A DNA stretch of 9,966 nt. Source: a virus. The position numbers and the translations under genes were made by a program. The DNA lies in UHGV virus genome UHGV-2186022. One strand, written 5' to 3'. Each line of letters starts with the position of its first letter. The first letter of the stretch is position 1. The notes under the pieces were generated by a model, which was given only the letters and a program-made list of their open reading frames with translations, was not told the origin of the DNA and made no database searches. This document shows positions 1 through 9,966 of this stretch, in pieces.

Positions 1-282
1 TTACCGCCGTAACCGCTCCGGCTTCTTCCAGTGGTACGTAATTTTTGCTTTTTCCCTGTACGTCTGCACGCGGCGACGGTAGGCCAGCATTTCAAGAACG
101 CGGATCCGTATGTTGCGCATATCCACATCATTAAGCTGGATACCATCACGGCGCATCACCTCAGCAACAACACGCGCATAATTTTCGGCTGTCACGCTGT
201 CCGGCTGCGTGGCCTGTTCGTCAGTCTGCTGGCTGATTCCACCAGCACGGCGGATTAATCCCAGTATTTCGGCTTCTGTCAT
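1..282 (-). CDS. hypothetical protein (93 aa)
   Basis: ATG at 282-280 with a GGGGG Shine-Dalgarno-like motif 5 nt upstream on the minus strand; in-frame TAA at 3-1. The longer 1..480 track ORF would read through the cos-like element, so the internal start is preferred. No family recognised. Confidence 0.5.
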   Translation of the reverse strand: MTEAEILGLIRRAGGISQQTDEQATQPDSVTAENYARVVAEVMRRDGIQLNDVDMRNIRIRVLEMLAYRRRVQTYREKAKITYHWKKPERLRR

Positions 283-315
283 TGTGCCCCCATCGCTCTG
301 ATAGTCTGGTGTCGT

Positions 316-395
316 CGGGTCCTTCCTGGAATTATGGCCCGTTACGGGGCGACGACCTCGCGCGTTTTCACTATTTATGAAAATTTTTCGGGATC
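316..395 (+). other. lambda-type cos site, copy A (cosQ-side flank, cosN, start of cosB)
   Basis: Plus strand 341-395 reads GTTACG GGGCGACGACCT CGCGCGTTTTCACTATTTATGAAAATTTTTCGGG. This matches the recalled lambda right-end/left-end junction (GTTACG + GGGCGGCGACCTCGCGGGTTTTCGCTATTTATGAAAATTTTCCGG) with one mismatch in the 12-nt cohesive-end sequence (347-358). 316-324 CGGGTCCTT matches the lambda right-end ACGGGTCCTTTCCGG. Confidence 0.7.
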
Positions 396-494
396 CATGT
401 CCGGTTTCTCTGCAAGTTAACCATATGAAAAATATAAAAACATGCTTTCCATGAACCGGACATGCGCAAAAAACAGACACTAAAACCGGACATC
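396..494. repeat. three copies of a 12-bp motif CATGTCCGGTTT in the cosB position of cos A (candidate small-terminase binding sites)
   Basis: 396-407 CATGTCCGGTTT (forward); 453-464 GAACCGGACATG and 483-494 AAACCGGACATC (both reverse, 11/12 match). An A-tract-rich segment (408-452) lies between copies 1 and 2. Layout resembles lambda cosB (R sites plus IHF site) but the motif differs from the lambda CGTTTCC core. Confidence 0.45.
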
Positions 495-561
495 GAACCA
501 GTTAACCGAAAGTGTGCACAAATCACATGCATTGCTGCGAGTGATTAACAAGTTATCGGCT

Positions 562-996
562 TTACTGTTCTGTATCGGCTGATTGCTCCATGCTGGCACG
601 GCGAACGCTTACGGCATGACGCCACCCAGCCAGAAAGCCAGCCATTTTATTTCGTGCCTTGCTCACATCTTCCGGTGAATAGCCGTAAATCTGCAAACCT
701 TCATCAAATCGATGTTCTGTTTCTTCACTGGAGTACTCGTCACGCTCAGATGAAAGCAGCCTGGCAAACATAATTTTTTCCAGCGCACTGGTTTCTACGT
801 GATATCTGATGGCCTCAAGACGGCTTTTACCTGAAGACCAAAGCAATGTATGCCCGATGTGATAACCGCCAGACTTTCCGCGATCCGCATTAAGATACGG
901 CATCCCCTGTTTGGTCCATGCGCGAATAGTGGTTCTGTTAACCTTGAAATGTTCAGCTATTTCCTGCTGACTTACAAAACAAGCTTTATCAATCAT
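562..996 (-). CDS. Nu1-like small terminase subunit-like DNA-binding protein (144 aa)
   Basis: ATG at 996-994 with AAGG 8 nt upstream; TAA at 564-562. N-terminus VSQQEIAEHFKVNRTTIRAWTKQGMPY aligns by eye with lambda Nu1 KKQLADIFGASIRTIQNWQEQGMPV (winged HTH, GMP motif) followed by a GGKG-like G-rich loop. Shorter than Nu1 (181 aa). Sits between two cos copies. Confidence 0.55.
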   Translation of the reverse strand: MIDKACFVSQQEIAEHFKVNRTTIRAWTKQGMPYLNADRGKSGGYHIGHTLLWSSGKSRLEAIRYHVETSALEKIMFARLLSSERDEYSSEETEHRFDEGLQIYGYSPEDVSKARNKMAGFLAGWRHAVSVRRASMEQSADTEQ

Positions 997-1063
997 AATG
1001 TTACCTTAACTGCATGGTTAAATATTAATCAAGTGGTGGTGGTGTCACCTTCACGGAAAAACG

Positions 1064-1128
1064 TCATAAATAGCGAAAACCCACGAGGTCGCCGCCCCGT
1101 AACGGGTCCATATGCCGGAAAGGACCCG
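1064..1128 (-). other. lambda-type cos site, copy B (cosQ-like, cosN identical to lambda, truncated cosB)
   Basis: Minus strand reads ACGGGTCCTTTCCGGCATATGGACCCGTTACG GGGCGGCGACCT CGTGGGTTTTCGCTATTTATGA. The 12-mer at 1097-1086 is identical to the lambda cohesive end; first 15 nt match the lambda right end. About 85 percent identical to copy A over roughly 65 bp, in inverted orientation. Confidence 0.7.
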
Positions 1129-1129
1129 T

Positions 1130-1152
1130 AAAAAAAGCCGGATTTCTCCGGC
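1130..1152 (-). terminator. rho-independent terminator of the head operon
   Basis: On the minus strand, hairpin GCCGGAGAAATCCGGC (1152-1137) followed by TTTTTTT (1136-1130), 7 nt after the TGA of the 137-aa gene. Confidence 0.7.
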
Positions 1153-1158
1153 CTTATG

Positions 1159-1572
1159 TCAGATGGTTTTCAGTATGCGATCGACGTCGCCTTCATCGCC
1201 CTGGTTTCTGCCGTCGTATGCCATGCCGGGTGATACGGCTTTCGGGCTGTGCATGTCCATAAAGTTTTCAAAGGCTGCGGTAAGCTCCGGCGCAACCTTT
1301 GGGCGCTCCTGCTCTATGGTCATGTTCAGGATTTCACGAGCATTATCGACGCTAATACATGGCACGTTTGCCATTGCACGTAACAGCGGCTGATAGTCGT
1401 TATGTTCATGAAGCGCCATAATCGCATCAGCGCGCGGCTTGTCCTGCTCTTCCAGTTTGTTGAGTTGATATACGGCCTCGTAGGTTGATAAACCTCTGTC
1501 AGCCATTGCCCGCGCTTCTGCTTTAAATTTACTCGCCAGCGGTAGCGCCATGATGCTTTCATTCGTTGCCAT
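1159..1572 (-). CDS. hypothetical protein (137 aa), last gene of the head operon
   Basis: ATG at 1572-1570 with AGCAGGGGAAACG upstream (SD GGGG); TGA at 1161-1159; 12-bp gap after the D-like gene. No family recognised; position after the capsid genes suggests a head-assembly or packaging accessory role (inference only). Confidence 0.6.
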   Translation of the reverse strand: MATNESIMALPLASKFKAEARAMADRGLSTYEAVYQLNKLEEQDKPRADAIMALHEHNDYQPLLRAMANVPCISVDNAREILNMTIEQERPKVAPELTAAFENFMDMHSPKAVSPGMAYDGRNQGDEGDVDRILKTI

Positions 1573-1584
1573 CGTTTCCCCTGC

Positions 1585-1920
1585 TTATCGCGCCAGCGGC
1601 TGAACGGATACGCCAGAACCCGCAAAGGCGGCGCATTTTTTCGCGTCAGTGTCGGCGCTCTCAGGCCAGTTTACGGCGGCGATATTAAATATCCCCGTCT
1701 TGTAACACTGTGCTGATTTCTGCTTTGACGTGTCCACGGGGTACGAGGTCAGATAAACAGCCTTCCCAGATTCCTGACCATCCCACGGCTTAAACTCGCC
1801 ATTGTCCGCCAGCATCAGCGGGGTAAATTCCTGAATAACGCCAGCATCAGCGGCAAAATGTACCAGCGTCGTGGATACCTGCTGACTGCCTGCAAATAAC
1901 TCAATGTATGGAGTGTCCAT
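1585..1920 (-). CDS. head decoration protein, lambda gpD-like (111 aa)
   Basis: ATG at 1920-1918 with GGGGGA SD; TAA at 1587-1585. By-eye alignment to lambda gpD: TPLML, WDG, YK(T/S)G(I/T)F, WPE(S/A)A and C-terminal KK..AFAG(S/T)..S(V/I) shared. Confidence 0.8.
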   Translation of the reverse strand: MDTPYIELFAGSQQVSTTLVHFAADAGVIQEFTPLMLADNGEFKPWDGQESGKAVYLTSYPVDTSKQKSAQCYKTGIFNIAAVNWPESADTDAKKCAAFAGSGVSVQPLAR

Positions 1921-1931
1921 AGAATCCCCCG

Positions 1932-2987
1932 TTAAGCAATTTTGACGGTAACAAATTTGCGAATATCTGCCGGAACCGGCTGCGGTGCGCTGTGCGTCTG
2001 CACGTACTCAATCGCCGGATCGCCGTCCTCAATCCAGTTTTTCGGGTAGTACATGTTTTGCGTTGCGCCTGTTCTTACCGCTTCCTGATCCATAATCGCA
2101 CCATAGGCCACCAGCCCTTTGTTGTTGGTGTTGCCCAGGACCAGCAAATCAGGATCAAGGAAATATTTTTCTGTGCCGTCGCTGTCAGTGTATTTGCCGG
2201 AATAGACGATAAGGGCCAGATCACCAAGATAGCCTTTAAAGCTCACCACTTCGCCCAGGTTTTTACATGCCAGCTCTGCGGCGGATTCTGAACCACGGGA
2301 GAGATCGTACAGTTCACGGAATTTTTTAAAGCTGCGTAACATGCGCCATACATCAACGCCCATAATCATGACGTTTGCGGGGCAACCTGCCTGATCTGCG
2401 TATAGCTCAATGTCATAGATTGGGTCGTGTATGTCTTTGTCCTGCTCTGACCATTTTTTACCGTCGGCCTGCTCTATGATGTTTTTTTCCGGTATCTTCC
2501 AGTCGATTTCATAGCGCTCTATGCCTTCGCCCTCAATGATGTTTTTTCCGGTCGTTATCGCATTCACCGCCAGCCATTCCACGCGCGCTTTAATGGCGTT
2601 TATCTGGCGGCGCATGTTGCCAGTAATCAGGCGCATACGGCGGTAGGTAGGGTCGTTAAGCTGTGCCGGATCTTCTCCAGCCATGCGCATTATTGTTTTT
2701 AATGGATCGATTTCGTGTTTTGGCTTCATGTAGCCAGGGCGAATAATGCTGGTTTCGTACCCTTTATCGCGCTGAACCTGGCTACCAACCATAGGCGAAC
2801 AAAACGCCGACATAGTGACTTCTTCAATATCCAGGTTATCTAACATGATGTCCTGTGTGTTGAATGTCGCCACGTTCGGGAAAAACAGCGTGGTAAACAG
2901 AGGGCTGAATTTAAAATCCGCAATATCCCCGCGATTCAGGTACATGAAAAGCTGGTTAGTGTTAAGTGCCGTTGCTTTGCCTGCCAT
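1932..2987 (-). CDS. major capsid protein, lambda gpE-like (351 aa)
   Basis: ATG at 2987-2985 with GGGGG SD; TAA at 1934-1932. By-eye alignment to lambda gpE across the length: FKFSPLF vs FKFDPLF, PGYMKPKHEIDP vs PGYVKPKHEVNP, EDPAQLNDPTYRRMRLI vs EDPQNLADPAYRRRRII, WSEQDK vs WSKRDK, VSFKGYLGDLALIVYSG vs VSYKGMYGDVAIVVYSG, LVLGNT, YPKNW..GDPA. Confidence 0.9.
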   Translation of the reverse strand: MAGKATALNTNQLFMYLNRGDIADFKFSPLFTTLFFPNVATFNTQDIMLDNLDIEEVTMSAFCSPMVGSQVQRDKGYETSIIRPGYMKPKHEIDPLKTIMRMAGEDPAQLNDPTYRRMRLITGNMRRQINAIKARVEWLAVNAITTGKNIIEGEGIERYEIDWKIPEKNIIEQADGKKWSEQDKDIHDPIYDIELYADQAGCPANVMIMGVDVWRMLRSFKKFRELYDLSRGSESAAELACKNLGEVVSFKGYLGDLALIVYSGKYTDSDGTEKYFLDPDLLVLGNTNNKGLVAYGAIMDQEAVRTGATQNMYYPKNWIEDGDPAIEYVQTHSAPQPVPADIRKFVTVKIA

Positions 2988-3193
2988 TATTCACCCCCAT
3001 AATTTTTATGCATCCCAAGCGCCGCAAGTAAATAAGAGCGTACAAGTGAACCTATCGACGGCTCCGGCGTCATCAGCGGATCCAGTCCAGCCGCCACGCC
3101 AGCCTCATAGTTTTTTTTGTGGCGCTGCTTGAGCACCTCCACGATTTCGGGGCTTATGTACACCGAAACACCGCCTTTTTTCTCTTCAGCCAT
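2987..3193 (-). CDS. hypothetical small protein (68 aa), first gene of the head operon
   Basis: ATG at 3193-3191 with AAGAGGA 10 nt upstream; TAA overlaps the capsid ATG by one base (TAATG), implying translational coupling. N-terminus GGVSVYISPEIVEVLKQ is weakly reminiscent of an RHH beta-strand plus helix; not a firm call. Confidence 0.6.
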   Translation of the reverse strand: MAEEKKGGVSVYISPEIVEVLKQRHKKNYEAGVAAGLDPLMTPEPSIGSLVRSYLLAALGMHKNYGGE

Positions 3194-3228
3194 AGTAAGA
3201 AATTCCTCTTCGACTTAAAAAATCATAA

Positions 3229-3278
3229 CTGGATGTTCATCCAGCTCTGATTATAATCATGATTGCATTTTGTGCAAT
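3229..3278 (-). promoter_or_regulatory. candidate sigma70 promoter and operators of the head operon
   Basis: Minus-strand -10 TATAAT (rc of 3250-3255) inside a perfect 12-bp palindrome TGATTATAATCA (3248-3259). Weak -35 TTGCAC (rc of 3272-3277), 16-bp spacer. Dyad ATTGCA-N5-TGCAAT (3262-3278) overlaps the -35. Second dyad CTGGATG-TT-CATCCAG (3229-3244) lies at the predicted transcription start. Confidence 0.45.
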
Positions 3279-3354
3279 GATATTGAGTTGTGTTGCAAAT
3301 TATGAAATGATGATCCCGATCATGTGTGTCAGTGCACCAAAAAGCCTCATATGC

Positions 3355-3395
3355 AAAAGCCCGATAAGCCACCTCTGACCTTATCGGGCTTTTTT
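3355..3395. terminator. strong hairpin, likely plus-strand (possibly bidirectional) terminator
   Basis: Perfect 11-bp stem AGCCCGATAAG (3358-3368) and CTTATCGGGCT (3380-3390), 11-nt loop, then TTTTT (3391-3395) on plus; preceded by AAAA so a weaker minus-strand terminator is also possible. No plus-strand ORF upstream. Confidence 0.5.
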
Positions 3396-3504
3396 ATCTG
3401 CCTGCAAAGATGTCGAACGAAAATTAACCACAACCATCATCTTTTTTGCATCAAAACAATTAAAAACAATAAATTACGCTCATGATGATGATGACGATAA
3501 AATC

Positions 3505-3570
3505 ACAAAAATGCGCTTTTTTCCGCGCCTCCCGCCCCGTGTTCAGGCCCACCCCGCCAGGAGGACCCGT
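3505..3570 (-). other. degenerate third cos-like copy (copy C)
   Basis: Minus strand reads ACGGGTCCTCCTGGCGGGGTGGGCCTGAACACGGGGCGGGAGGCGCGG, alignable to copy B (ACGGGTCCTTTCCGG...GTTACGGGGCGGCGACCTCG) at roughly 70 percent. The cosN-equivalent 12-mer is degraded. Confidence 0.4.
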
Positions 3571-3592
3571 AAAAAAGCCGGATTGCTCCAGC
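3571..3592 (-). terminator. rho-independent terminator of the SSB-like operon
   Basis: Minus-strand hairpin GCTGGAGCAATCCGGC (3592-3577, one G-T wobble) followed by TTTTTT (3576-3571), 16 nt after the TAA of the SSB-like gene. Near-identical to the 1130-1152 terminator. Confidence 0.65.
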
Positions 3593-3608
3593 TTCTGTCA
3601 CTCGTCGC

Positions 3609-3977
3609 TTAAAACGGTATGTTATCCCCGTACGGATCATCATTCCCCGCCTGTTGTTTTGCCCTGTTCAGCGCGTCAGTAGCCTGGCCCTGTTGACCTT
3701 TTTTGCCGCCCAGTCGCGCCGTTCGCGCACTGATTACACTGTCTGCGATAACCTGCCAGCCCTGCCGCGTTTCTCCGTTCTGCCCAGTCCACTGGCTGAT
3801 CTGCATGTTACCCGCCACGCTCAGGAGTTCACCCTTGCGGTGCCTTTCCAGTGCTTCGGCCTGGCTGCACGGAAGGGGGGCCGCCATACGCGCCAGCGTC
3901 ATCGGTGTGCCCTTGCTGGTCTGTTTTACCTGCGGGTCGTCCACCAGCCGCCCGTAAGCTGCTATCTGTGCTGTCAT
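3609..3977 (-). CDS. short SSB-like protein (122 aa) with C-terminal ..DNIPF tail
   Basis: ATG at 3977-3975 with GGAGAGG SD; TAA at 3611-3609. N-terminus [25 protein letters not shown] resembles E. coli SSB [41 protein letters not shown] resembles TRKWTDQSGQDRYTTEV; C-terminus [11 protein letters not shown] resembles the SSB acidic tip DFDDDIPF. The middle of the OB fold appears shortened. Confidence 0.6.
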   Translation of the reverse strand: [122 protein letters not shown]

Positions 3978-4219
3978 GATTCCACCTCTCCGGTTTTAAC
4001 GTTGATGGTTGTCACCTGTTCCGCTTCGGCAATCTCCCGTTCTGTCAGCGTGGCAAAGTTTGCCGCTGCCGTGGTCATGAATGCGCTTACCAGTTCGGGA
4101 TGTGCTTTTGCGTACCCTTCTCCCGCGTTGCGGTCGATGATTTTTATCGCCACCCTCAGCCAGTGTTCTGTCAAATCAAGGGCGTGAGATTGTGGTTTTT
4201 TTGCGTGCTTCGTTGTCAC
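3974..4219 (-). CDS. hypothetical protein (81 aa), GTG start
   Basis: GTG at 4219-4217 with GAGG 11 nt upstream; stop overlaps the SSB-like start (ATGA). No family recognised. Confidence 0.45.
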   Translation of the reverse strand: MTTKHAKKPQSHALDLTEHWLRVAIKIIDRNAGEGYAKAHPELVSAFMTTAAANFATLTEREIAEAEQVTTINVKTGEVES

Positions 4220-4270
4220 AGGCTTTACCTCACAGCAATAAAATAAAATTTTTGCATTTTAACCCTTCAC

Positions 4271-4494
4271 CTGTTCACCTTTTGAGATTTTCCCTTTTTA
4301 TTCATAATGTTAAGGGGTGAACAGTTTCACAAAAACTATTCACCAACTGTTCACCACTGTTCACCCTTAAAGCTCAATAAATAATCAAAAAGGTGAACAG
4401 TGAATAGTTTGGTGAACAGTTCACAAATAACTGTTCACCCTATAATGTACTGATATAAAAGATATTTATAACAGGGTGAACAGTGGTGAACAGT
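4271..4494. repeat. iteron array, putative origin of replication
   Basis: Nine copies of the 9-10-bp motif GGTGAACAGT in both orientations. Forward at 4316-4325, 4392-4401, 4411-4420, 4475-4484, 4485-4494; reverse (ACTGTTCACC) at 4271-4279, 4346-4355, 4356-4365, 4431-4439. AT-rich spacers at 4281-4310 and 4441-4470. Immediately downstream of the primase stop. Confidence 0.8.
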
Positions 4495-4506
4495 TATTCC
4501 ATAAGT

Positions 4507-6321
4507 TTAATTTTTGCTGTCGTCATTTGTGACCGATGCACATGATGGCATCCAGTCTTCTGAATCCTCTGTCAGTGTCACATTTGAACGCAAACCGTGC
4601 TTCGTTTTCCGTTTTATATACTCCCTGCCATATTCCGCCATTGCCCCCGGCATATCTTTACCGAAGCGCGTCAGTGTTACAGGTTTACCGAATCCGTGTG
4701 CCCTCATATATGCCAGATAGGCGTGATAAAGATACCTGCGCGGACTGAACGGAATAATTTCGGCATTACCCACTAACAGACCATCACACATTACCGACGA
4801 CATGAGATAGCCACAGAAGTCCACCAGCGAATCGCCCTCGCGTTTTATCACCAGAGCTTCTTCTGATTTCTGCTGCTCATACAGCAGGCGTTTAGCTTCG
4901 TCCTGGTCAGAAAAACGAGTAAGCAGATGGCGAATCACAACCGCCAGCTCTCCTTCTATTTTTTCTGCCAGCATGGGGTCGCGCTCGTTCTCCGGTACAA
5001 CCTCCGAAAAATTGAATATCACCCGACGACGTGAGATCCCCCCGCTGCGGTCACTGAATGACATGGCGTTATTGTTCACCGCCAGCACGACCGCCTGAAT
5101 GCGTGTTGAGTAGGGGGCTTTATGCTTCGGGTCGATTGCCACCTTGTCACCGCCTGTAATGGCCTTAATTCCTGCGCCATCACCAGCGTAGCGGGTCATA
5201 TCCGGCATGATAATCAGCGAAAAGCCAACCACTAACGCGCGTTCCCTTGCATCTTCCAGCGCCTTCATGCTTGCCGATACTGTGTTGGCCTTACCCGCCA
5301 GCATGGTGCAAATCTCCGCCATCACGCTTTTACCACTTCCCCCTGGACCTGTTACCTCAATGAATAACTGCCAGTCGTACCGGTTCGCCAGCACCATGAA
5401 TAATGCAGCCAGCACGCGATCCGTCTTGCGGTCATTCTCTGCCACCGAGCAGCGTAACCACTTCCAGAAATTCGGCGCATGTGTTGCCAGCGTTTCCCCC
5501 TCTGCTGGTGGGCTGAAAGGTAATTCACTGGCAATTAACAACCAGTCGTTTTTGTTATGCTCCCGAAAATTACCTGTTCTGGTATCAAATACCCCGTTAC
5601 TGAATCCAATCAGGTTACGGGCTGTATTCCCCATTACAGGCAAACTTAACTTCATGGTATCGACCGCCGATTTAATGGCGTTCTGCGAATAGCTGATCTC
5701 CGCATCAATGAAAATCTGCGCCATAGCACGCTGTAACTCTTTATCCTGAATCGGCTCCCATACAACGCCGTTGTAATGGTGAACAGTGTCAGAGTCGGCA
5801 TGAATCGCCAGTTCACCGCCATAATGTGCCAGGAGAACTTCGCCGCGCTGGCTTGCTCCCATCTGGTTAAGCGCCAGTGGTGCGGCGCTGTCTTCTGTTT
5901 TTTTCTTAACAGGAAGCTGAATCACCAGACCATCAGAAAGATTCTGGCGCTCACGGGCCAGATATTCGCGCCAGTTCTGCACCTCCTGGCCGTGCATACC
6001 CTCAGGATAAAAATTTGCATCCTGTACGCCTGCCGCCGCCAGCTTCTGACCAATCGCCTTTATCATTACTGGCGCAAGATATCCGGCCCTGAATATGCGC
6101 ACGGATTTTCTGCCTTCCGGCACAATTTGCAGCTTATCCAGTTCGGATAACTGCTGCTCCCCAAGCCACACAGGAGGCTCATTATCTCCGGCCATACGCG
6201 CGTCATGTTCCTGCCATTGTTTTGCGTGTGACCAGGCATCACTACCCGCAAAAATAATGACTTCTGTTTCTTTGTGTTTTATGCCGCGTGACTGCTGTTT
6301 TACGTTCGGTGCCAGTTTCAT
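4507..6321 (-). CDS. primase-helicase, P4-alpha/D5 family C-terminal domain type (604 aa)
   Basis: ATG at 6321-6319 with AGGGGG SD; TAA at 4509-4507. Walker A GPGGSGKS within EVTGPGGSGKSVMAEICTMLAGK, and the overall layout is typical of satellite and plasmid primase-helicase proteins. Confidence 0.85.
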   Translation of the reverse strand: MKLAPNVKQQSRGIKHKETEVIIFAGSDAWSHAKQWQEHDARMAGDNEPPVWLGEQQLSELDKLQIVPEGRKSVRIFRAGYLAPVMIKAIGQKLAAAGVQDANFYPEGMHGQEVQNWREYLARERQNLSDGLVIQLPVKKKTEDSAAPLALNQMGASQRGEVLLAHYGGELAIHADSDTVHHYNGVVWEPIQDKELQRAMAQIFIDAEISYSQNAIKSAVDTMKLSLPVMGNTARNLIGFSNGVFDTRTGNFREHNKNDWLLIASELPFSPPAEGETLATHAPNFWKWLRCSVAENDRKTDRVLAALFMVLANRYDWQLFIEVTGPGGSGKSVMAEICTMLAGKANTVSASMKALEDARERALVVGFSLIIMPDMTRYAGDGAGIKAITGGDKVAIDPKHKAPYSTRIQAVVLAVNNNAMSFSDRSGGISRRRVIFNFSEVVPENERDPMLAEKIEGELAVVIRHLLTRFSDQDEAKRLLYEQQKSEEALVIKREGDSLVDFCGYLMSSVMCDGLLVGNAEIIPFSPRRYLYHAYLAYMRAHGFGKPVTLTRFGKDMPGAMAEYGREYIKRKTKHGLRSNVTLTEDSEDWMPSCASVTNDDSKN

Positions 6322-6605
6322 TTTTTACCCCCTGCGACCAGCATTTCACGAATTTTGCGGATATGACTTGCTGCACGTTTCTGATTTACGGCTTTACGAT
6401 GGCCCACCAGCGTGAAATCACGCCGGAACTGATAAACAGGCATCACGCAGTCATATTCGTAGCCATCACGGCGGTAAGTGATGCGCCGTTCTGCCACGCC
6501 TTTTATCGTTACCGTGCCGCCATAGTTATCCCGGAAAATATCGCCGGGGCGGATTTCAGGCCGAGCGGGGCCGCTGGCAGTAAAGCCAGAATTTTTATTT
6601 TTCAT
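6318..6605 (-). CDS. hypothetical protein (95 aa)
   Basis: ATG at 6605-6603; stop overlaps the primase start (ATGA). Weak SD. No family recognised. Confidence 0.55.
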   Translation of the reverse strand: MKNKNSGFTASGPARPEIRPGDIFRDNYGGTVTIKGVAERRITYRRDGYEYDCVMPVYQFRRDFTLVGHRKAVNQKRAASHIRKIREMLVAGGKK

Positions 6606-6610
6606 GGTTT

Positions 6611-6838
6611 TTATTCCGCGTTTATTTTTTTATCGTGAATTTCGATCGCTTTATTTAATTCGACGATTACCGTATCGAGTAATGAAATAAACGCACCAGC
6701 AAGATTAGACTCACGCTCATCTTCCGGCGCATCACTTAAACCATTAAGCCAGATAAGAAATATTTGCCTCAAACATTCACTGTTAGTCAGTGCGTTTTCT
6801 GCATGGCTCATTGATTTAAAATAACGGTCATCATGCAT
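6611..6838 (-). CDS. hypothetical protein (75 aa from internal ATG; track ORF extends to 6883)
   Basis: ATG at 6838-6836 with AAGGGG 7 nt upstream; overlaps the stop of the upstream gene by 8 nt. The longer form from 6883 has no comparable SD. Confidence 0.5.
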   Translation of the reverse strand: MHDDRYFKSMSHAENALTNSECLRQIFLIWLNGLSDAPEDERESNLAGAFISLLDTVIVELNKAIEIHDKKINAE

Positions 6839-7067
6839 GGTGCGCCCCTTGAATATCTGCGGTAAGAATTTTGCCTGCCTCATTCAGCGCCATATCAGCA
6901 CTAAGTTGCATAACAGCCAGTGAGTGAGGAACGAAAGCCCCGGCATATTCTGTTTCGCTGGTGGCGTGCTTATGCGCCTTGTCTGCGATAACAGAAATAT
7001 CAATCAGCGCGTGCATCAGCGTTTTGATGGCTTCGGCGGCTGCGTCCGGACGGGTGTTATTGCACAT
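6831..7067 (-). CDS. hypothetical protein (78 aa)
   Basis: ATG at 7067-7065 with AGGGGG SD; TGA at 6833-6831. No family recognised. Confidence 0.55.
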   Translation of the reverse strand: MCNNTRPDAAAEAIKTLMHALIDISVIADKAHKHATSETEYAGAFVPHSLAVMQLSADMALNEAGKILTADIQGAHHA

Positions 7068-7263
7068 GGCGTACCCCCTGACGAATACGGGCAGCGAATA
7101 CCATCACGCAGCCATCAGGAGATTGCTGACGCGCTTCCTGTTCGCTGGTGGCCTCAATGGTAATCACGCGCGGTTGTGCCGTGCTCAGGGCGATAAAACG
7201 CCAGATGTATTTATTCAGGTTGTACGAGTCCCGCCCTTGCGGGTGTGTGGTATGATTTCTCAT
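7057..7263 (-). CDS. hypothetical protein (68 aa), first gene of the operon ending in the primase
   Basis: ATG at 7263-7261 with GAGG 6 nt upstream; TAA at 7059-7057. It is the 3-prime part of the 316-aa track ORF; only this part has a credible start. Confidence 0.5.
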   Translation of the reverse strand: MRNHTTHPQGRDSYNLNKYIWRFIALSTAQPRVITIEATSEQEARQQSPDGCVMVFAARIRQGVRHVQ

Positions 7264-7360
7264 AGCTGCCTCGATACTTTCGCTATCGTTGGTGGTTAGA
7301 AGCCCGTTGGTGTTGGTAGCACCTGCGGGCTTTGTCTTTTCATCGATTACCTCAACAAAG

Positions 7361-7441
7361 GTGTCAGCCACTATACTAGTAACAGGTGTCAGCCACGTCA
7401 ATAGTGTTTTTCCATTTTCTTGTGTGTATACTGTCAGCCAC
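7361..7441. promoter_or_regulatory. triple direct-repeat operator in the divergent promoter region
   Basis: GTGTCAGCCAC at 7361-7371 and 7386-7396, TGTCAGCCAC at 7432-7441. TATACT hexamers abut copy 1 (7373-7378) and copy 3 (7426-7431). Lies between divergent starts at 7263 (minus) and 7463 (plus). Confidence 0.5.
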
Positions 7442-7462
7442 CTAATAACAAGGAAATCAGAT

Positions 7463-7642
7463 ATGGCAACGAAAGCAGTTAATGGAAAATCCAAAAAACT
7501 TGAGGCACGAGTCCCCCATGCAATAGCTGACGCTGTAGAAAATTTAAAGGAAGAAGGCGAAAGCACTGGGCAATTTATCGTTTCGGCACTTGAAGGCGAG
7601 ATCAAACGCCGCCAGCGCCGCAAGGCCAAAGAGCAGGAGTAA
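7463..7642 (+). CDS. small ribbon-helix-helix-like DNA-binding protein (59 aa), candidate regulator
   Basis: ATG at 7463 with AAGGAAA SD; TAA at 7640-7642. KLEARVPHAIADAVENLKEEGESTGQFIVSALEGEIKRR fits an RHH pattern (beta-strand LEARVP, helix A, G-x-S/T loop, helix B) with a basic tail. Fold assignment is by eye. Confidence 0.55.
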   Translation: MATKAVNGKSKKLEARVPHAIADAVENLKEEGESTGQFIVSALEGEIKRRQRRKAKEQE

Positions 7643-7684
7643 CCATCACCAGCGCCGTGGTGTAAGGTATTACGGCGCATTGCT

Positions 7685-7873
7685 ATGCAGGACAACACAA
7701 TGACCGATAAAGAATTGACCAAAACATTATCACCGGCACGGAAAAGACGGCGCAGAAAGATAGAGCATGAATCAGAAAGATTCGCGCCATGTGCTTTTGC
7801 CCTTGAGCAATTCCTTAAAGAGTACAGGGAAAAGCGCTCATTGCAGGTATGGCAACGAACTGAACCAGACTGA
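7685..7873 (+). CDS. hypothetical basic protein (62 aa; alternative ATG at 7700)
   Basis: ORF with RKRRRRK basic stretch; weak SD for either start; TGA at 7871-7873; followed by a terminator. Confidence 0.35.
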   Translation: MQDNTMTDKELTKTLSPARKRRRRKIEHESERFAPCAFALEQFLKEYREKRSLQVWQRTEPD

Positions 7874-7968
7874 TTGCATTGCCCACCAGCCTGATAGCGG
7901 CTATCATCCCCGTGCTTATGTTTGGGATCATATACACATAAGGCGCAGCGGGTTAATTGTTCAGAAAG

Positions 7969-7995
7969 GCGGCTCCATATCGGGGCCGCTTTTTT
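7969..7995 (+). terminator. rho-independent terminator between convergent genes
   Basis: Stem GCGGCTCC (7969-7976) and GGGGCCGC (7982-7989), 5-nt loop, TTTTTT (7990-7995). The alpA stop is at 8022 on the other strand. Confidence 0.6.
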
Positions 7996-8021
7996 CGTGT
8001 TTGTCATATCTGTGATACCCG

Positions 8022-8228
8022 TTAAGCAGCCGTTCCGCGTGCTTCCTGTTCGCGTTCTTTCTGCCAGGCCAACACATCATCCTCATACCATCCGCGACGG
8101 CGTAAACCAACGCGAAAACCCTGCGGAAATTCTCCGGCGTTGATCATGCTTTGCAGCGTGCTGTCTGCCTTGATGTGGATAATTTTTTTTACTTCCTGGC
8201 GAAAGATAATTTTTCTGATTGCTTCCAT
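8022..8228 (-). CDS. alpA: AlpA-family phage transcriptional regulator (68 aa)
   Basis: ATG at 8228-8226 with AAGG 9 nt upstream; TAA at 8024-8022. IIFRQEVKKIIHIKADSTLQSMINAGEFPQGFRVGLRRRGWYEDDVLAWQKER fits the AlpA/Vis HTH pattern (EV..STL...I..G.FP....G.R..GW.E..V..W). Position next to a P4-type integrase is typical. Confidence 0.8.
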   Translation of the reverse strand: MEAIRKIIFRQEVKKIIHIKADSTLQSMINAGEFPQGFRVGLRRRGWYEDDVLAWQKEREQEARGTAA

Positions 8229-8361
8229 CGTGATTTACCTTGTGAATCCGGTGTATTCCGGTGACAAATACGGTAAATCATCGGATATGGGTAAAAACAG
8301 TTCCCACCGTTTTTAAACGGTATACACCGTTTTTTATATTGATGATTTGAAATGGAATTAT

Positions 8362-8384
8362 AAAAAAAGCGGCATTTCTGCCGC
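8362..8384 (-). terminator. rho-independent terminator downstream of the int-proximal ORF
   Basis: Minus-strand hairpin GCGGCAGAAATGCCGC (8384-8369) followed by TTTTTTT (8368-8362). Confidence 0.7.
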
Positions 8385-8395
8385 TTCCAGGATTG

Positions 8396-8647
8396 TTACC
8401 GCCATTTTTTGGGCCTGCCTCCGATCTTCATAGATGCCGGACGTACGACCTTATCAATACTTACCGCCAGATTTCTGGAAGCGCCACGGGATACCAGAAA
8501 ATCTACTACCTGTTTTTTTGATGGGGCCGTCGTCCTGTCCTCCGGATCGTAGGTTGACCAAAATTCATGCTGAACCATCAGGGCCAGTTGCAGCCCGTCG
8601 CAATTGCATCTGATATTTTTTTGCATCTTAACGGTTTCATGTTTCAC
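8396..8647 (-). CDS. hypothetical protein (83 aa from GTG; 76 aa from ATG at 8626)
   Basis: ORF between int and alpA ending just before the 8362-8384 terminator. GTG at 8647 has AAGG upstream; ATG at 8626 lacks an SD. No family recognised. Confidence 0.4.
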   Translation of the reverse strand: MKHETVKMQKNIRCNCDGLQLALMVQHEFWSTYDPEDRTTAPSKKQVVDFLVSRGASRNLAVSIDKVVRPASMKIGGRPKKWR

Positions 8648-8724
8648 GGCCTTGTCGTTAAATTTGATGCAATTATACGACGGTTTTACATGGTTTTCGT
8701 AGTTTTTACTGGTTTTCTGTACAG

Positions 8725-9966
8725 CTACACGGCTCGGATACCCCTTTTACCACTGGCGAGGGTTACGCCCGTCGCCGCAGCCTCGACAAATTCGCCCCAC
8801 CAGCGCATCAGCACGATGCGTTTTTCTATGTAGTTGCTCCGGTTGTATGCCCGTCTAACTTCGTTGGTGTCGACGTGGGCAAGTGCCGCCTCTATTACGT
8901 CCGGCTCGAATCCTTCCTCGTTCGCTGCTGTGCTGAATATGGCGCGTAATCCATGAGACACCAGCACGCCAGCGAATCCCATACGCCGCAATGCTGCGTT
9001 AGCTGTCTGGCTGTTCATCGGCTGCTGTGGGTCTTTCAGACTTGGGAAAACGTAATTGCGGTGGTGGCTGATTGGTTTCATGGCCTCCAGCACCGCCATA
9101 GCCTGACCGGAAAGCGGGATAACGTGATCCCTGCGCATCTTCATGCGTCCGGCAGGTATCGTCCATTGCTTCGCGTCCAGGTTGATTTCATCCCACCGCG
9201 TTGATGACGCTTCGGCGGGACGGGTTACGGTCAGTAACTGCCATTCAATCAGTAATCTGGTCTGCCGTTCTGTTGCCGATACTGATAAAGCCTGCATAAG
9301 CTCGGGCAGCTGTTCGGGGCGGATTGTTGGCATATGTTTTTTTACAGGTGAGGGAAACGCCTTACGCACATTCATAGCCGGATTGGCATCAATCAGCCCA
9401 CTGTTGGCGGCGTAATCCATTACCTCATTAACGCGCTGTAAAACCCGTTTGAGTGTTTCCAGGTTGCCGCGCTCCTTGATGGGGGTAAGCACCTCAACGA
9501 ACCTGCGAGCGGTCAGGGTGTCTATTGGGGTGTTGCCGATGAACGGGAATACATATTTATCCAGCGATCGCCAGATGTCTTTAATCGTGTTGGGGGCCAG
9601 ATTCTGGCTGATTTTCACCTGGTACCATGCCGCCGCCACATTTTCGAACGTGTTCCCTTGTCTTCGGGCCTCTGCCTCTCGTTTTTTCTTCTCATGGCCC
9701 TGCGGGTCAGTTCCGGCACTGATTAACGCTCTGTACTCGCTACGGCGTTTTCTGGCATCAGCCAGGGAAACATCATCAAGCGATCCAAAACTCAGCAATA
9801 TTCTTTTTTTGTCCGATGGCCGGTAGTAGGAAAATCGCCAGAGTTTTGATCCGGACGGTTTGACCAGGAGAAAAAGCCCTCCGCCGTCCTGTAGGGTGTA
9901 TTCCTTTTCCGCTGGTCTGGCTGCTTTGATCTGCACCGTGGTTAATGGGGGTGTTTTTCTCGCCAT
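8725..9966 (-). CDS. int: tyrosine site-specific integrase, P4 type (413 aa)
   Basis: ATG at 9966-9964 (window edge); TAG at 8727-8725. N-terminus LTTVQIKAARPAEKEYTLQDGGGLFLLVKPSGSKLWRFSYY is the characteristic P4-integrase arm-binding region. C-terminal catalytic elements present: TVTRPAEA (Arg), HGLRAIFSTAA (H-x-x-R), HVDTNEVRRAYNRSNY (Tyr region). Confidence 0.95.
   Translation of the reverse strand: MARKTPPLTTVQIKAARPAEKEYTLQDGGGLFLLVKPSGSKLWRFSYYRPSDKKRILLSFGSLDDVSLADARKRRSEYRALISAGTDPQGHEKKKREAEARRQGNTFENVAAAWYQVKISQNLAPNTIKDIWRSLDKYVFPFIGNTPIDTLTARRFVEVLTPIKERGNLETLKRVLQRVNEVMDYAANSGLIDANPAMNVRKAFPSPVKKHMPTIRPEQLPELMQALSVSATERQTRLLIEWQLLTVTRPAEASSTRWDEINLDAKQWTIPAGRMKMRRDHVIPLSGQAMAVLEAMKPISHHRNYVFPSLKDPQQPMNSQTANAALRRMGFAGVLVSHGLRAIFSTAANEEGFEPDVIEAALAHVDTNEVRRAYNRSNYIEKRIVLMRWWGEFVEAAATGVTLASGKRGIRAV

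Follow-up and report, generated by a model that had tools for sequence, protein, structure and literature searches.

A mosaic member of the EcCICFT073 family of Rpp-encoding phage-inducible chromosomal islands at tRNA-Pro(GGG) in Escherichia coli

EcCICFT073, which lies next to phoQ in Escherichia coli CFT073, is the prototype of the Gram-negative phage-inducible chromosomal islands (PICIs) (Fillol-Salom 2018 ISME J, PMC6092414; 2019 Mol Cell, PMC6739421). It is mobilised at high frequency by lambda, phi80 and a lambdoid prophage of CFT073, its cycle is activated by AlpA, which the helper induces, excision and replication require its Int and Pri, and no plasmid state is known for its family (PMC6092414). 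Eight PICI attachment (att) sites are found in E. coli, with several allelic variants of AlpA and Pri-Rep (PMC6092414). Packaging is redirected by RppA (c1503, described as 144 residues), which binds the DNA-binding domain of the helper TerS; in the heterocomplex the phage cosB goes unrecognised and the island cosB at cos1 is recognised, and cos1 is required for RppA-dependent transfer (PMC6739421). TerS is still needed with RppA, probably to recruit TerL to the lambda-type cosN. The five components by which SatelliteFinder defines a PICI are int, a regulator, pri-rep, a capsid-morphogenesis gene and terS, and genes for tail, holin, portal or connectors must be absent; of the islands with all five, 97% are from E. 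coli. The virus genome UHGV-2186022 (9,966 nucleotides, analysed over its whole length and called the window below) represents, with a probability of about 93%, almost all of a classical Gram-negative PICI of cos type, which encodes an Rpp protein, belongs to the EcCICFT073 family and is inserted in E. coli at tRNA-Pro(GGG), between yejM and yejO/narP.

The open reading frame (ORF) listing and the family scans give a co-directional array of minus-strand genes, whose sole plus-strand exception is a gene of the YlcI/YnfO family (Table 1). From the integrase (int), the array runs through a small ORF, the alpA-type regulator, an Icd-like gene, three small ORFs including DUF4222, the primase, an ORF of 81 amino acids (aa) and a single-stranded DNA-binding (SSB)-like gene, and continues with a 68-aa ORF, homologues of lambda E and D, a 137-aa ORF (ORF137), a 144-aa helix-turn-helix (HTH) protein and a terminal 93-aa ORF. 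EcCICFT073 has the same order from alpA to ORF93, including pri, the replication origin (ori), E, D, ORF137, cos1, rppA and cos2, and window positions 1-3395 are 93.9% identical to it in nucleotide sequence. The components named in a first-pass annotation of the window (integrase, alpA, primase, iterons, lambda-type cos, a Nu1-like HTH protein and E/D homologues) are all present and statistically solid, and all five SatelliteFinder core components were found in the island. Its size (10.76 kb, in a PICI range of about 10-15 kb), mostly unidirectional genes and dedicated chromosomal att site are likewise those of a PICI.

An exact search with the primase sequence led to contig JAKWNB010000003.1 (GCA_023857505.1; locus L012 of the loci compared), which is 99.99% identical to the window over all 9966 bases and has flanks 99.6-100% identical to E. 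coli K-12. The island limits were set by comparison with the empty site of K-12: the inserted DNA extends from about 6140 to 16895 of L012, and is bounded by tRNA-Pro/yejM and yejO/narP. The gene content of the full island in L012 includes no portal, TerL, tail, lysis, holin or head-tail connector genes. With chromosomal genes on both sides and no such phage genes between them, the first-pass view of the element as a phage satellite, and not part of a complete lambdoid prophage, holds. The gene set of the capsid-forming PICIs (cf-PICIs), namely an HK97-type capsid protein, protease, portal, connectors, HNH, TerS and TerL, is present in loci L006-L011 and absent from both the window and the full island. 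Of the described PICI, cf-PICI and P4-like sets, with which a comparison had been proposed, the gene content thus corresponds to that of classical PICIs and to neither of the others.

A tRNA scan found no tRNA inside the window. Extension on both sides through L012 places the end of tRNA-Pro(GGG) (proL) 219 bp past window position 9966, with the island directly 3' of the tRNA, where the first-pass annotation had expected an att site at a tRNA. With a 12-nt seed, no long direct repeat of the 3' end of the tRNA was found as att; relative to the K-12 empty site, the two island junctions share only a 9-nt CTCTCGTGC block plus AAA. The attR fragment of the tRNA 3' end is without CGACC, and attR damage of this kind has been reported for PICIs (PMC10111431). 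Direct and inverted TTAGTTATACG repeats, and a GTGGAATCATATACAT repeat, occur at both island ends outside the window (L012 6268-6355 and 16803-16851). The TTAGTTATACG repeats are the sequences given as att in the 2018 PICI catalogue, and both kinds of repeat are probably arm-type sites of Int/AlpA. Sister islands occupy the same yejM-narP site in Nissle 1917, ATCC 25922 and AST198, and PICIs at yejM-luxR (EcCIATCC25922, EcCIED1a.1 and EcCI11128) are already listed in Table S1 of PMC6092414.

The 144-aa HTH protein had been called TerS-like. Similarity to TerS is indeed seen, as its N-terminus matches phrog_57 terS at 3.9e-8 and is 30% identical over 64 aa to the N-terminus of Nu1 (E 5e-5), with weak matches to lambda Nu1 DNA-binding domains; its identity, however, is that of RppA (100%), and it has 144 aa versus 181 aa for Nu1. 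It also matches the RppC crystal structure 6hlk (5e-31 over residues 2-125). The Rpp family is characterised by an N-terminal winged HTH, a length of 139-154 aa, the lack of a TerL-binding C-terminus and a position downstream of a cosQ-cosN with a non-phage cosB, and the 144-aa protein has these sequence features. The accompanying cos1 lies 58-136 nt upstream of the gene; its 12-mer GGGCGGCGACCT is the exact lambda cohesive end, and the 79-nt stretch around it has 85% identity with the cosQ-cosN junction of lambda. The resemblance to lambda ends about 44 nt beyond the nick, and cos1 thus lacks a lambda cosB. From 1082 downward, the region from cos1 to rppA is base-for-base identical to EcCICFT073, and recognition site and protein are thus the experimentally characterised ones. 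By its 100% identity to the RppA of PMC6739421, the protein is predicted to bind the helper TerS and to switch packaging to the island cos. The lambda-type packaging signals, together with the mobilisation of the prototype by lambda, phi80 and the lambdoid CFT073 prophage (PMC6092414), agree with the first-pass proposal of a lambdoid helper with lambda-type cohesive ends.

The segment from 353 to 1082 (730 nt) is identical to EcCICFT073 while its flanks are ~6% divergent, and the identical block ends in or beside the two cosN sequences of cos1 and cos2. The Nissle island and locus L005 have, in place of the interval of about 395-1050, DNA of unrelated sequence that encodes a TerS of the Nu1 family. 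This suggests, from the aligned islands, that a packaging-specificity gene (rppA or terS) may be exchanged as a unit with its cosB between the inverted cos sites. A clean model of a cassette bounded only by cos sites was considered, and is weakened by further breakpoints inside the cassette in other genomes. The RppA cassette is found at a coverage of at least 80% in 53 of 5426 genomes.

A third cos-like site (cos3) is 88-91% identical over 170 nt to the region directly upstream of the DUF1441-family terS in Shiga toxin (Stx) phages (VT1-Sakai, Stx2d_112808), with weaker similarity to the equivalent region of mEp460. The Nissle island also carries it, perC occupies its place in EcCICFT073, and cos3-related sequence occurs in 589 of 5426 complete E. 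coli genomes. It is predicted to be a functional cos, and may let a second class of lambdoid helpers package the island directly.

Table 1. Genes, cos sites and replication origin of the 9,966-nucleotide window.
Feature	Position	Strand	Evidence
Terminal 93-aa ORF, phrog_1561	1..282	-	86-95% identical to EcCICFT073 and Nissle ORFs (86% EcCICFT073)
cos2, inverted second cos	316..393	+	cosN GGGCGACGACCT at 347-358; 92% identical to lambda over 51 nt
rppA, 144 aa, TerS-mimicking winged HTH	562..996	-	100% identical, protein and DNA, to CFT073 144-aa protein
cos1	1054..1132	-	cosQ GGGTCCT and cosN GGGCGGCGACCT at 1086-1097; non-lambda cosB directly upstream of rppA
ORF137, homologue of C-terminal (Nu3/scaffold) part of lambdoid gpC	1159..1572	-	phrog_53 C-terminus 1.5e-9
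Lambda D-type head decoration homologue, 111 aa (= c1500)	1585..1920	-	PF02924 1e-17
Lambda E-type major capsid homologue, 351 aa (= c1499)	1932..2987	-	PF03864 9e-50
68-aa ORF before capsid gene, phrog_3255	2987..3193	-	68% identical to EcCICFT073 counterpart
Third cos-like site (cos3), Stx/Gifsy-2 lambdoid type	3406..3590	-	cosQ GGGTCCT, 24 nt, ACGGGGCGGGAGGCGCGG, about 130 nt downstream
SSB-like protein, 122 aa	3609..3977	-	PF00436 1e-8 over partial region
81-aa ORF, phrog_1231	3974..4219	-	88% identical to EcCICFT073 counterpart
Replication origin	4260..4500		10 GGTGAACAG iterons, both orientations, around AT-rich core
Pri-Rep primase/helicase, 604 aa	4507..6321	-	D5_N, DUF5906, Pox_D5; phrog_864 5e-193
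Three small conserved ORFs	6831-7067, 6611-6838, 6318-6605 (DUF4222)	-	PHROG unknown-function families; PF13973 1e-25
Icd-like protein, 68 aa	7057..7263	-	NF033153 phage_ICD_like 1e-19; 95% identical to EcCICFT073 counterpart
YlcI/YnfO-family small gene	7463..7642	+	phrog_949 4e-22; 66% identical to EcCICFT073 YlcI/YnfO gene; called in L012
alpA-type HTH regulator, 68 aa	8022..8228	-	PHROG phrog_66 excisionase/regulator 5.5e-7
Small hypothetical ORF between int and alpA	8396..8647	-	100% identical to 76-aa Nissle island protein; no family match
Tyrosine integrase, P4-type, 413 aa	8725..9966	-	Arm-DNA-bind_3, Phage_int_M, Phage_integrase, E 5e-23 to 6e-29; NF007246 8e-166

Other parts of the island have their closest relatives elsewhere. 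The integrase is 98% identical to that of the Nissle 1917 island, the alpA-type regulator is 100% identical to the HTH regulator of the same island, and the int/alpA end as a whole (7612-9966) shows 98.4% nucleotide identity to it. The regulator is flagged as PF05930 in the precomputed matches of the sister locus L005. An identical 604-aa primase is found in cf-PICIs (L006-L011) and in a PICI variant with Nu1-type TerS (L005, L009), and the regulation and replication module (3609-7891) has 94-97% nucleotide identity to the loci that share this primase. The cf-PICIs among them sit at four other chromosomal sites, and the gene that ends the island (1-283) is 81% identical in nucleotide sequence to the one that ends the cf-PICI loci L006 and L008. 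The shared replication module and the similar last gene indicate that classical PICIs and cf-PICIs exchange modules freely. Directly 3' of the primase, GGTGAACAG occurs in 10 copies (9 exact) within 4271-4493, matching the position 3' of pri described for the PICI ori (PMC6092414). In the whole window there are 19 matches to this motif versus 1.7 expected, a count reached by none of 200 shuffles. As judged from these alleles, the island is a mosaic, with the int/alpA allele of the Nissle island, a primase allele also found in cf-PICIs and the rppA cassette of EcCICFT073.

The first-pass annotation had seen a P4/PICI-like front end joined to packaging and head genes of lambda type, and had suggested an under-described satellite lineage without a named family. 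No complete E. coli genome in the collection does contain at least 80% of the window in one place, and the alleles are combined from different islands. However, EcCICFT073 matches the island gene for gene with an identical RppA, and a gene-for-gene match to a defined family is what the annotation itself had named as evidence against a new lineage. Moreover, a public contig 99.99% identical to the window exists, the attachment site and sister islands are in the 2018 catalogue, E. coli PICIs have been described as varying in their Int, AlpA and Pri alleles (PMC6092414), and the PICI definition of SatelliteFinder is exactly this gene set. As that core includes a capsid-morphogenesis gene and terS, a P4-like front end with a lambda-like head module is normal for classical E. 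coli PICIs. A new lineage is thus very improbable, and the element falls, as a mosaic, within the EcCICFT073-type family of Rpp-encoding classical PICIs, which has been described before. The lambda-type cos sites and the E/D homologues, and the pseudogenes of relatives (mcp and int of AST198, with internal stops), would also be in keeping with a decayed lambdoid prophage that has left a head-gene fragment and an integrase, rather than with a satellite. This is hardly credible, given that the order E-D-Nu3-like-cos-rpp differs from that of lambda, that E and D are only 37-45% identical to the phage versions, that the island has a dedicated primase/iteron replicon, that many genomes have conserved the 10.8-kb unit with identical limits, and that the prototype has been mobilised experimentally at high frequency. 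Dependence on a P2-type helper, as in P4-like satellites, would account for the P4-family integrase, the alpA-type regulator, the Icd-like protein and the P4-family primase domain, but no homologues of psu, sid, delta or epsilon were found among the window ORFs in Pfam, PHROG and NCBIfam scans, the cos sites are of lambda type and not of P2/P4 type, and the island carries Rpp, which targets Nu1-type TerS. An Rfam scan of the window at gathering thresholds gave no RNA family, and hence no evidence of a P4-like CI or antisense RNA. E. coli PICIs are also explicitly separated from P4 in PMC6092414, and a P4-like satellite is accordingly most improbable.

The role of the capsid-related genes is a different question. 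The E homologue is 94% identical to c1499, 43% to lambda E and 45% to the E protein of a CFT073 prophage, and the D homologue is 97% identical to c1500 and 37% to lambda D. ORF137, annotated as hypothetical everywhere, is 90% identical to an ORF of EcCICFT073 and matches residues 416-493 of the 501-aa S49 peptidase (gpC) of a CFT073 lambdoid prophage (36% over 83 aa, E 3e-9); by this scaffold homology, the products of the island include a coat, a decoration and a scaffold-like protein. None of the three genes is disrupted, and all are under purifying selection, with ratios of non-synonymous to synonymous substitution rates (dN/dS) against the CFT073 and Nissle alleles of 0.13-0.16 for E, 0.07-0.10 for D and 0.23-0.33 for ORF137. 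The E/D/Nu3-like trio could be pictured as an active capsid module that works on the portal and protease of the helper, and with the right helper yields satellite-specific, possibly smaller heads. The intact, selected genes (0.07-0.33 overall) and the homology of ORF137 to the scaffold end of gpC speak for this, as do a capsid gene in 21 of the 29 reference Gram-negative PICIs, the identical replication module in true capsid-forming PICIs, and the lack of a capsid-module gene in the published test island c1499::cat. On the other hand, deletion of c1499 or c1500 changed neither transfer nor interference (PMC6092414), and DNA packaged by lambda was all phage-sized. When the post-ori genes of the prototype were expressed singly, only rppA inhibited lambda, and the island is without portal, protease and head-completion genes. 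An active module is consequently unlikely. A narrower version, also doubtful, is that the trio works with particular helpers only, beside two packaging systems that may give the island a wider choice of helpers, RppA/cos1 for lambda/phi80/21-type TerS and cos3 for phages with DUF1441-TerS. The published tests used the marked islands c1501::tetA and c1499::cat; c1501 is probably, by gene numbering, the homologue of ORF137, and the negative capsid results might reflect these marker insertions and poorly matched helpers.

For an EcCICFT073-type PICI, a life cycle can be proposed by homology to the prototype. Its gene content and identities, its cos sites and iterons, and the limits and tRNA target of the island are those observed here; for induction, Rpp-TerS redirection and helper range the scheme draws on the identity to EcCICFT073, which is 100% or high. 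When induced or infecting, a lambdoid helper would turn on alpA, and AlpA would activate the co-directional island operon. The integrase would excise the 10.8-kb element, and Pri-Rep would fire the iteron origin just 3' of its own gene, yielding concatemers. RppA would then bind the DNA-binding domain of the Nu1-type TerS of the helper, forming a complex that would no longer recognise the phage cosB and would recognise the island cosB beside cos1. TerS would bring the helper TerL to the lambda-type cosN, so that island DNA would be cut and packaged in helper-made capsids and helper packaging would be blocked. Packaged EcCICFT073 DNA is phage-sized (PMC6092414), and a lambda head would have room for about four copies of the 10.76-kb unit (43 kb, 89% of lambda).

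Several observations weigh against this account of the island. The int, alpA and pri alleles differ from those of the prototype (24%, 42% over a partial alignment, and 55% identity, respectively), and the inducing helper signal could therefore differ. The 68-aa regulator scores 17.6 bits with the Pfam AlpA model, versus a cut-off of 21. In the alignment with Nissle and CFT073, the SSB-like gene is seen to have lost 18 aa in frame from its oligonucleotide-binding (OB) fold (QADDGTATMWLSVLAFGR in the Nissle allele), and the shortened protein may be non-functional. The cohesive-end 12-mer of cos2 carries a G-to-A substitution at 352; the 12-mer is perfect in EcCICFT073, Nissle and AST198, so the substitution is specific to this island. 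The SSB-like deletion and the cos2 substitution mean that some functions may be impaired, although deletion of cos2 in EcCICFT073 raised lambda-mediated transfer, and the change at 352 may thus be neutral or beneficial. Finally, the activity of this particular island is presumed from the prototype only.

The three small ORFs between the primase and the Icd-like gene occupy the same positions in EcCICFT073. A 316-aa ORF (7057-8007, minus strand) was rejected as a real gene, as only its C-terminal 68 aa, the Icd-like protein, are conserved or annotated in relatives, and as the YlcI/YnfO gene lies antisense within its frame. Within the same region, RefSeq annotates an extra Icd-like pseudogene fragment in relatives. 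From searches of Pfam, PHROG and NCBIfam no function emerged for ORF68, ORF81, ORF93, ORF83 or a 140-aa ORF just outside the window. Promoter-like sites in the window do not exceed the shuffled expectation and were left unused, and terminator-like sites are modestly enriched. A search of a phage database with the whole window returned only short patches (the primase, 78% identical to a 16.5-kb 'phage' record, and cos regions), and the window is therefore not a deposited phage. Two records deposited as phages, LR881103.1 (16.5 kb) and ON470578.1 (16.2 kb), have a match to either the primase (78%) or the cos3 region, and their size suggests that they may be packaged PICIs or cf-PICIs. In the AST198 island (L001), the major capsid gene and the integrase both have internal stop codons, which shows that some island copies are decaying.

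The element belongs to one of the best-characterised E. coli satellite families and would be classified by automated tools such as SatelliteFinder, so it carries little weight as a discovery. It is, however, a clear case of modular mosaicism, in which each of the int/alpA, replication and packaging-specificity modules has a different sister island as its source. It also bears on two questions left open by the original authors, the role of the capsid homologues and the reason why some PICIs carry more than one cos site. Small leads on these questions that can be tested are ORF137 with its likeness to a scaffold, the third cos-like site of Stx type and the rppA/terS cassette bounded by cos sites.

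Among known systems, EcCICFT073 is like this island in having two inverted lambda-type cos sites. It is attached in the roxA/phoQ region with a different integrase, whereas this island is at tRNA-Pro/yejM, and it has a different alpA allele and perC in place of the Stx-phage-type cos-like segment; the SSB deletion of 18 aa and the G-to-A change in cos2 are found in this island and not in EcCICFT073. The PICIs at yejM-narP(luxR), which are EcCIATCC25922, EcCIED1a.1, EcCI11128 and the Nissle 1917 island, share with it the integration site, the third cos-like site and, at 92-98% protein identity, the E/D/ORF137 module. They differ in carrying a 180-aa Nu1-family TerS (PF07471) between the cos sites where this island has RppA, and in a primase allele that is 55% identical to the one found here. 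The cf-PICIs (prototype EcCIEDL933; Alqurainy et al.) share the 604-aa primase, the replication module and a similar last gene, but build their own heads, whereas this island has E/D homologues and Rpp instead.

More distant systems show the same themes in other combinations. Satellite P4 shares with this island the integrase family, an alpA/vis-type regulator, an Icd-like gene, the primase family and integration at a tRNA, while the island is without psu, sid, delta and epsilon and has lambda-type cos sites and a lambdoid helper. SaPIbov5, a cos-type staphylococcal PICI with the capsid homologue Ccm, is likewise cos-packaged and carries a homologue of the helper major capsid protein (PMC6092414). 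It is from another taxon and unrelated in sequence, and its capsid homologue redirects capsid size, an effect not seen in the EcCICFT073 family (PMC6092414). The Gram-negative PICI 11capE (Mageeney et al. 2023) has a capsid gene of the lambda E family and a cos segment shared with its lambdoid helper; it sits inside the capsid gene of that helper, whereas the island described here is at a chromosomal tRNA.

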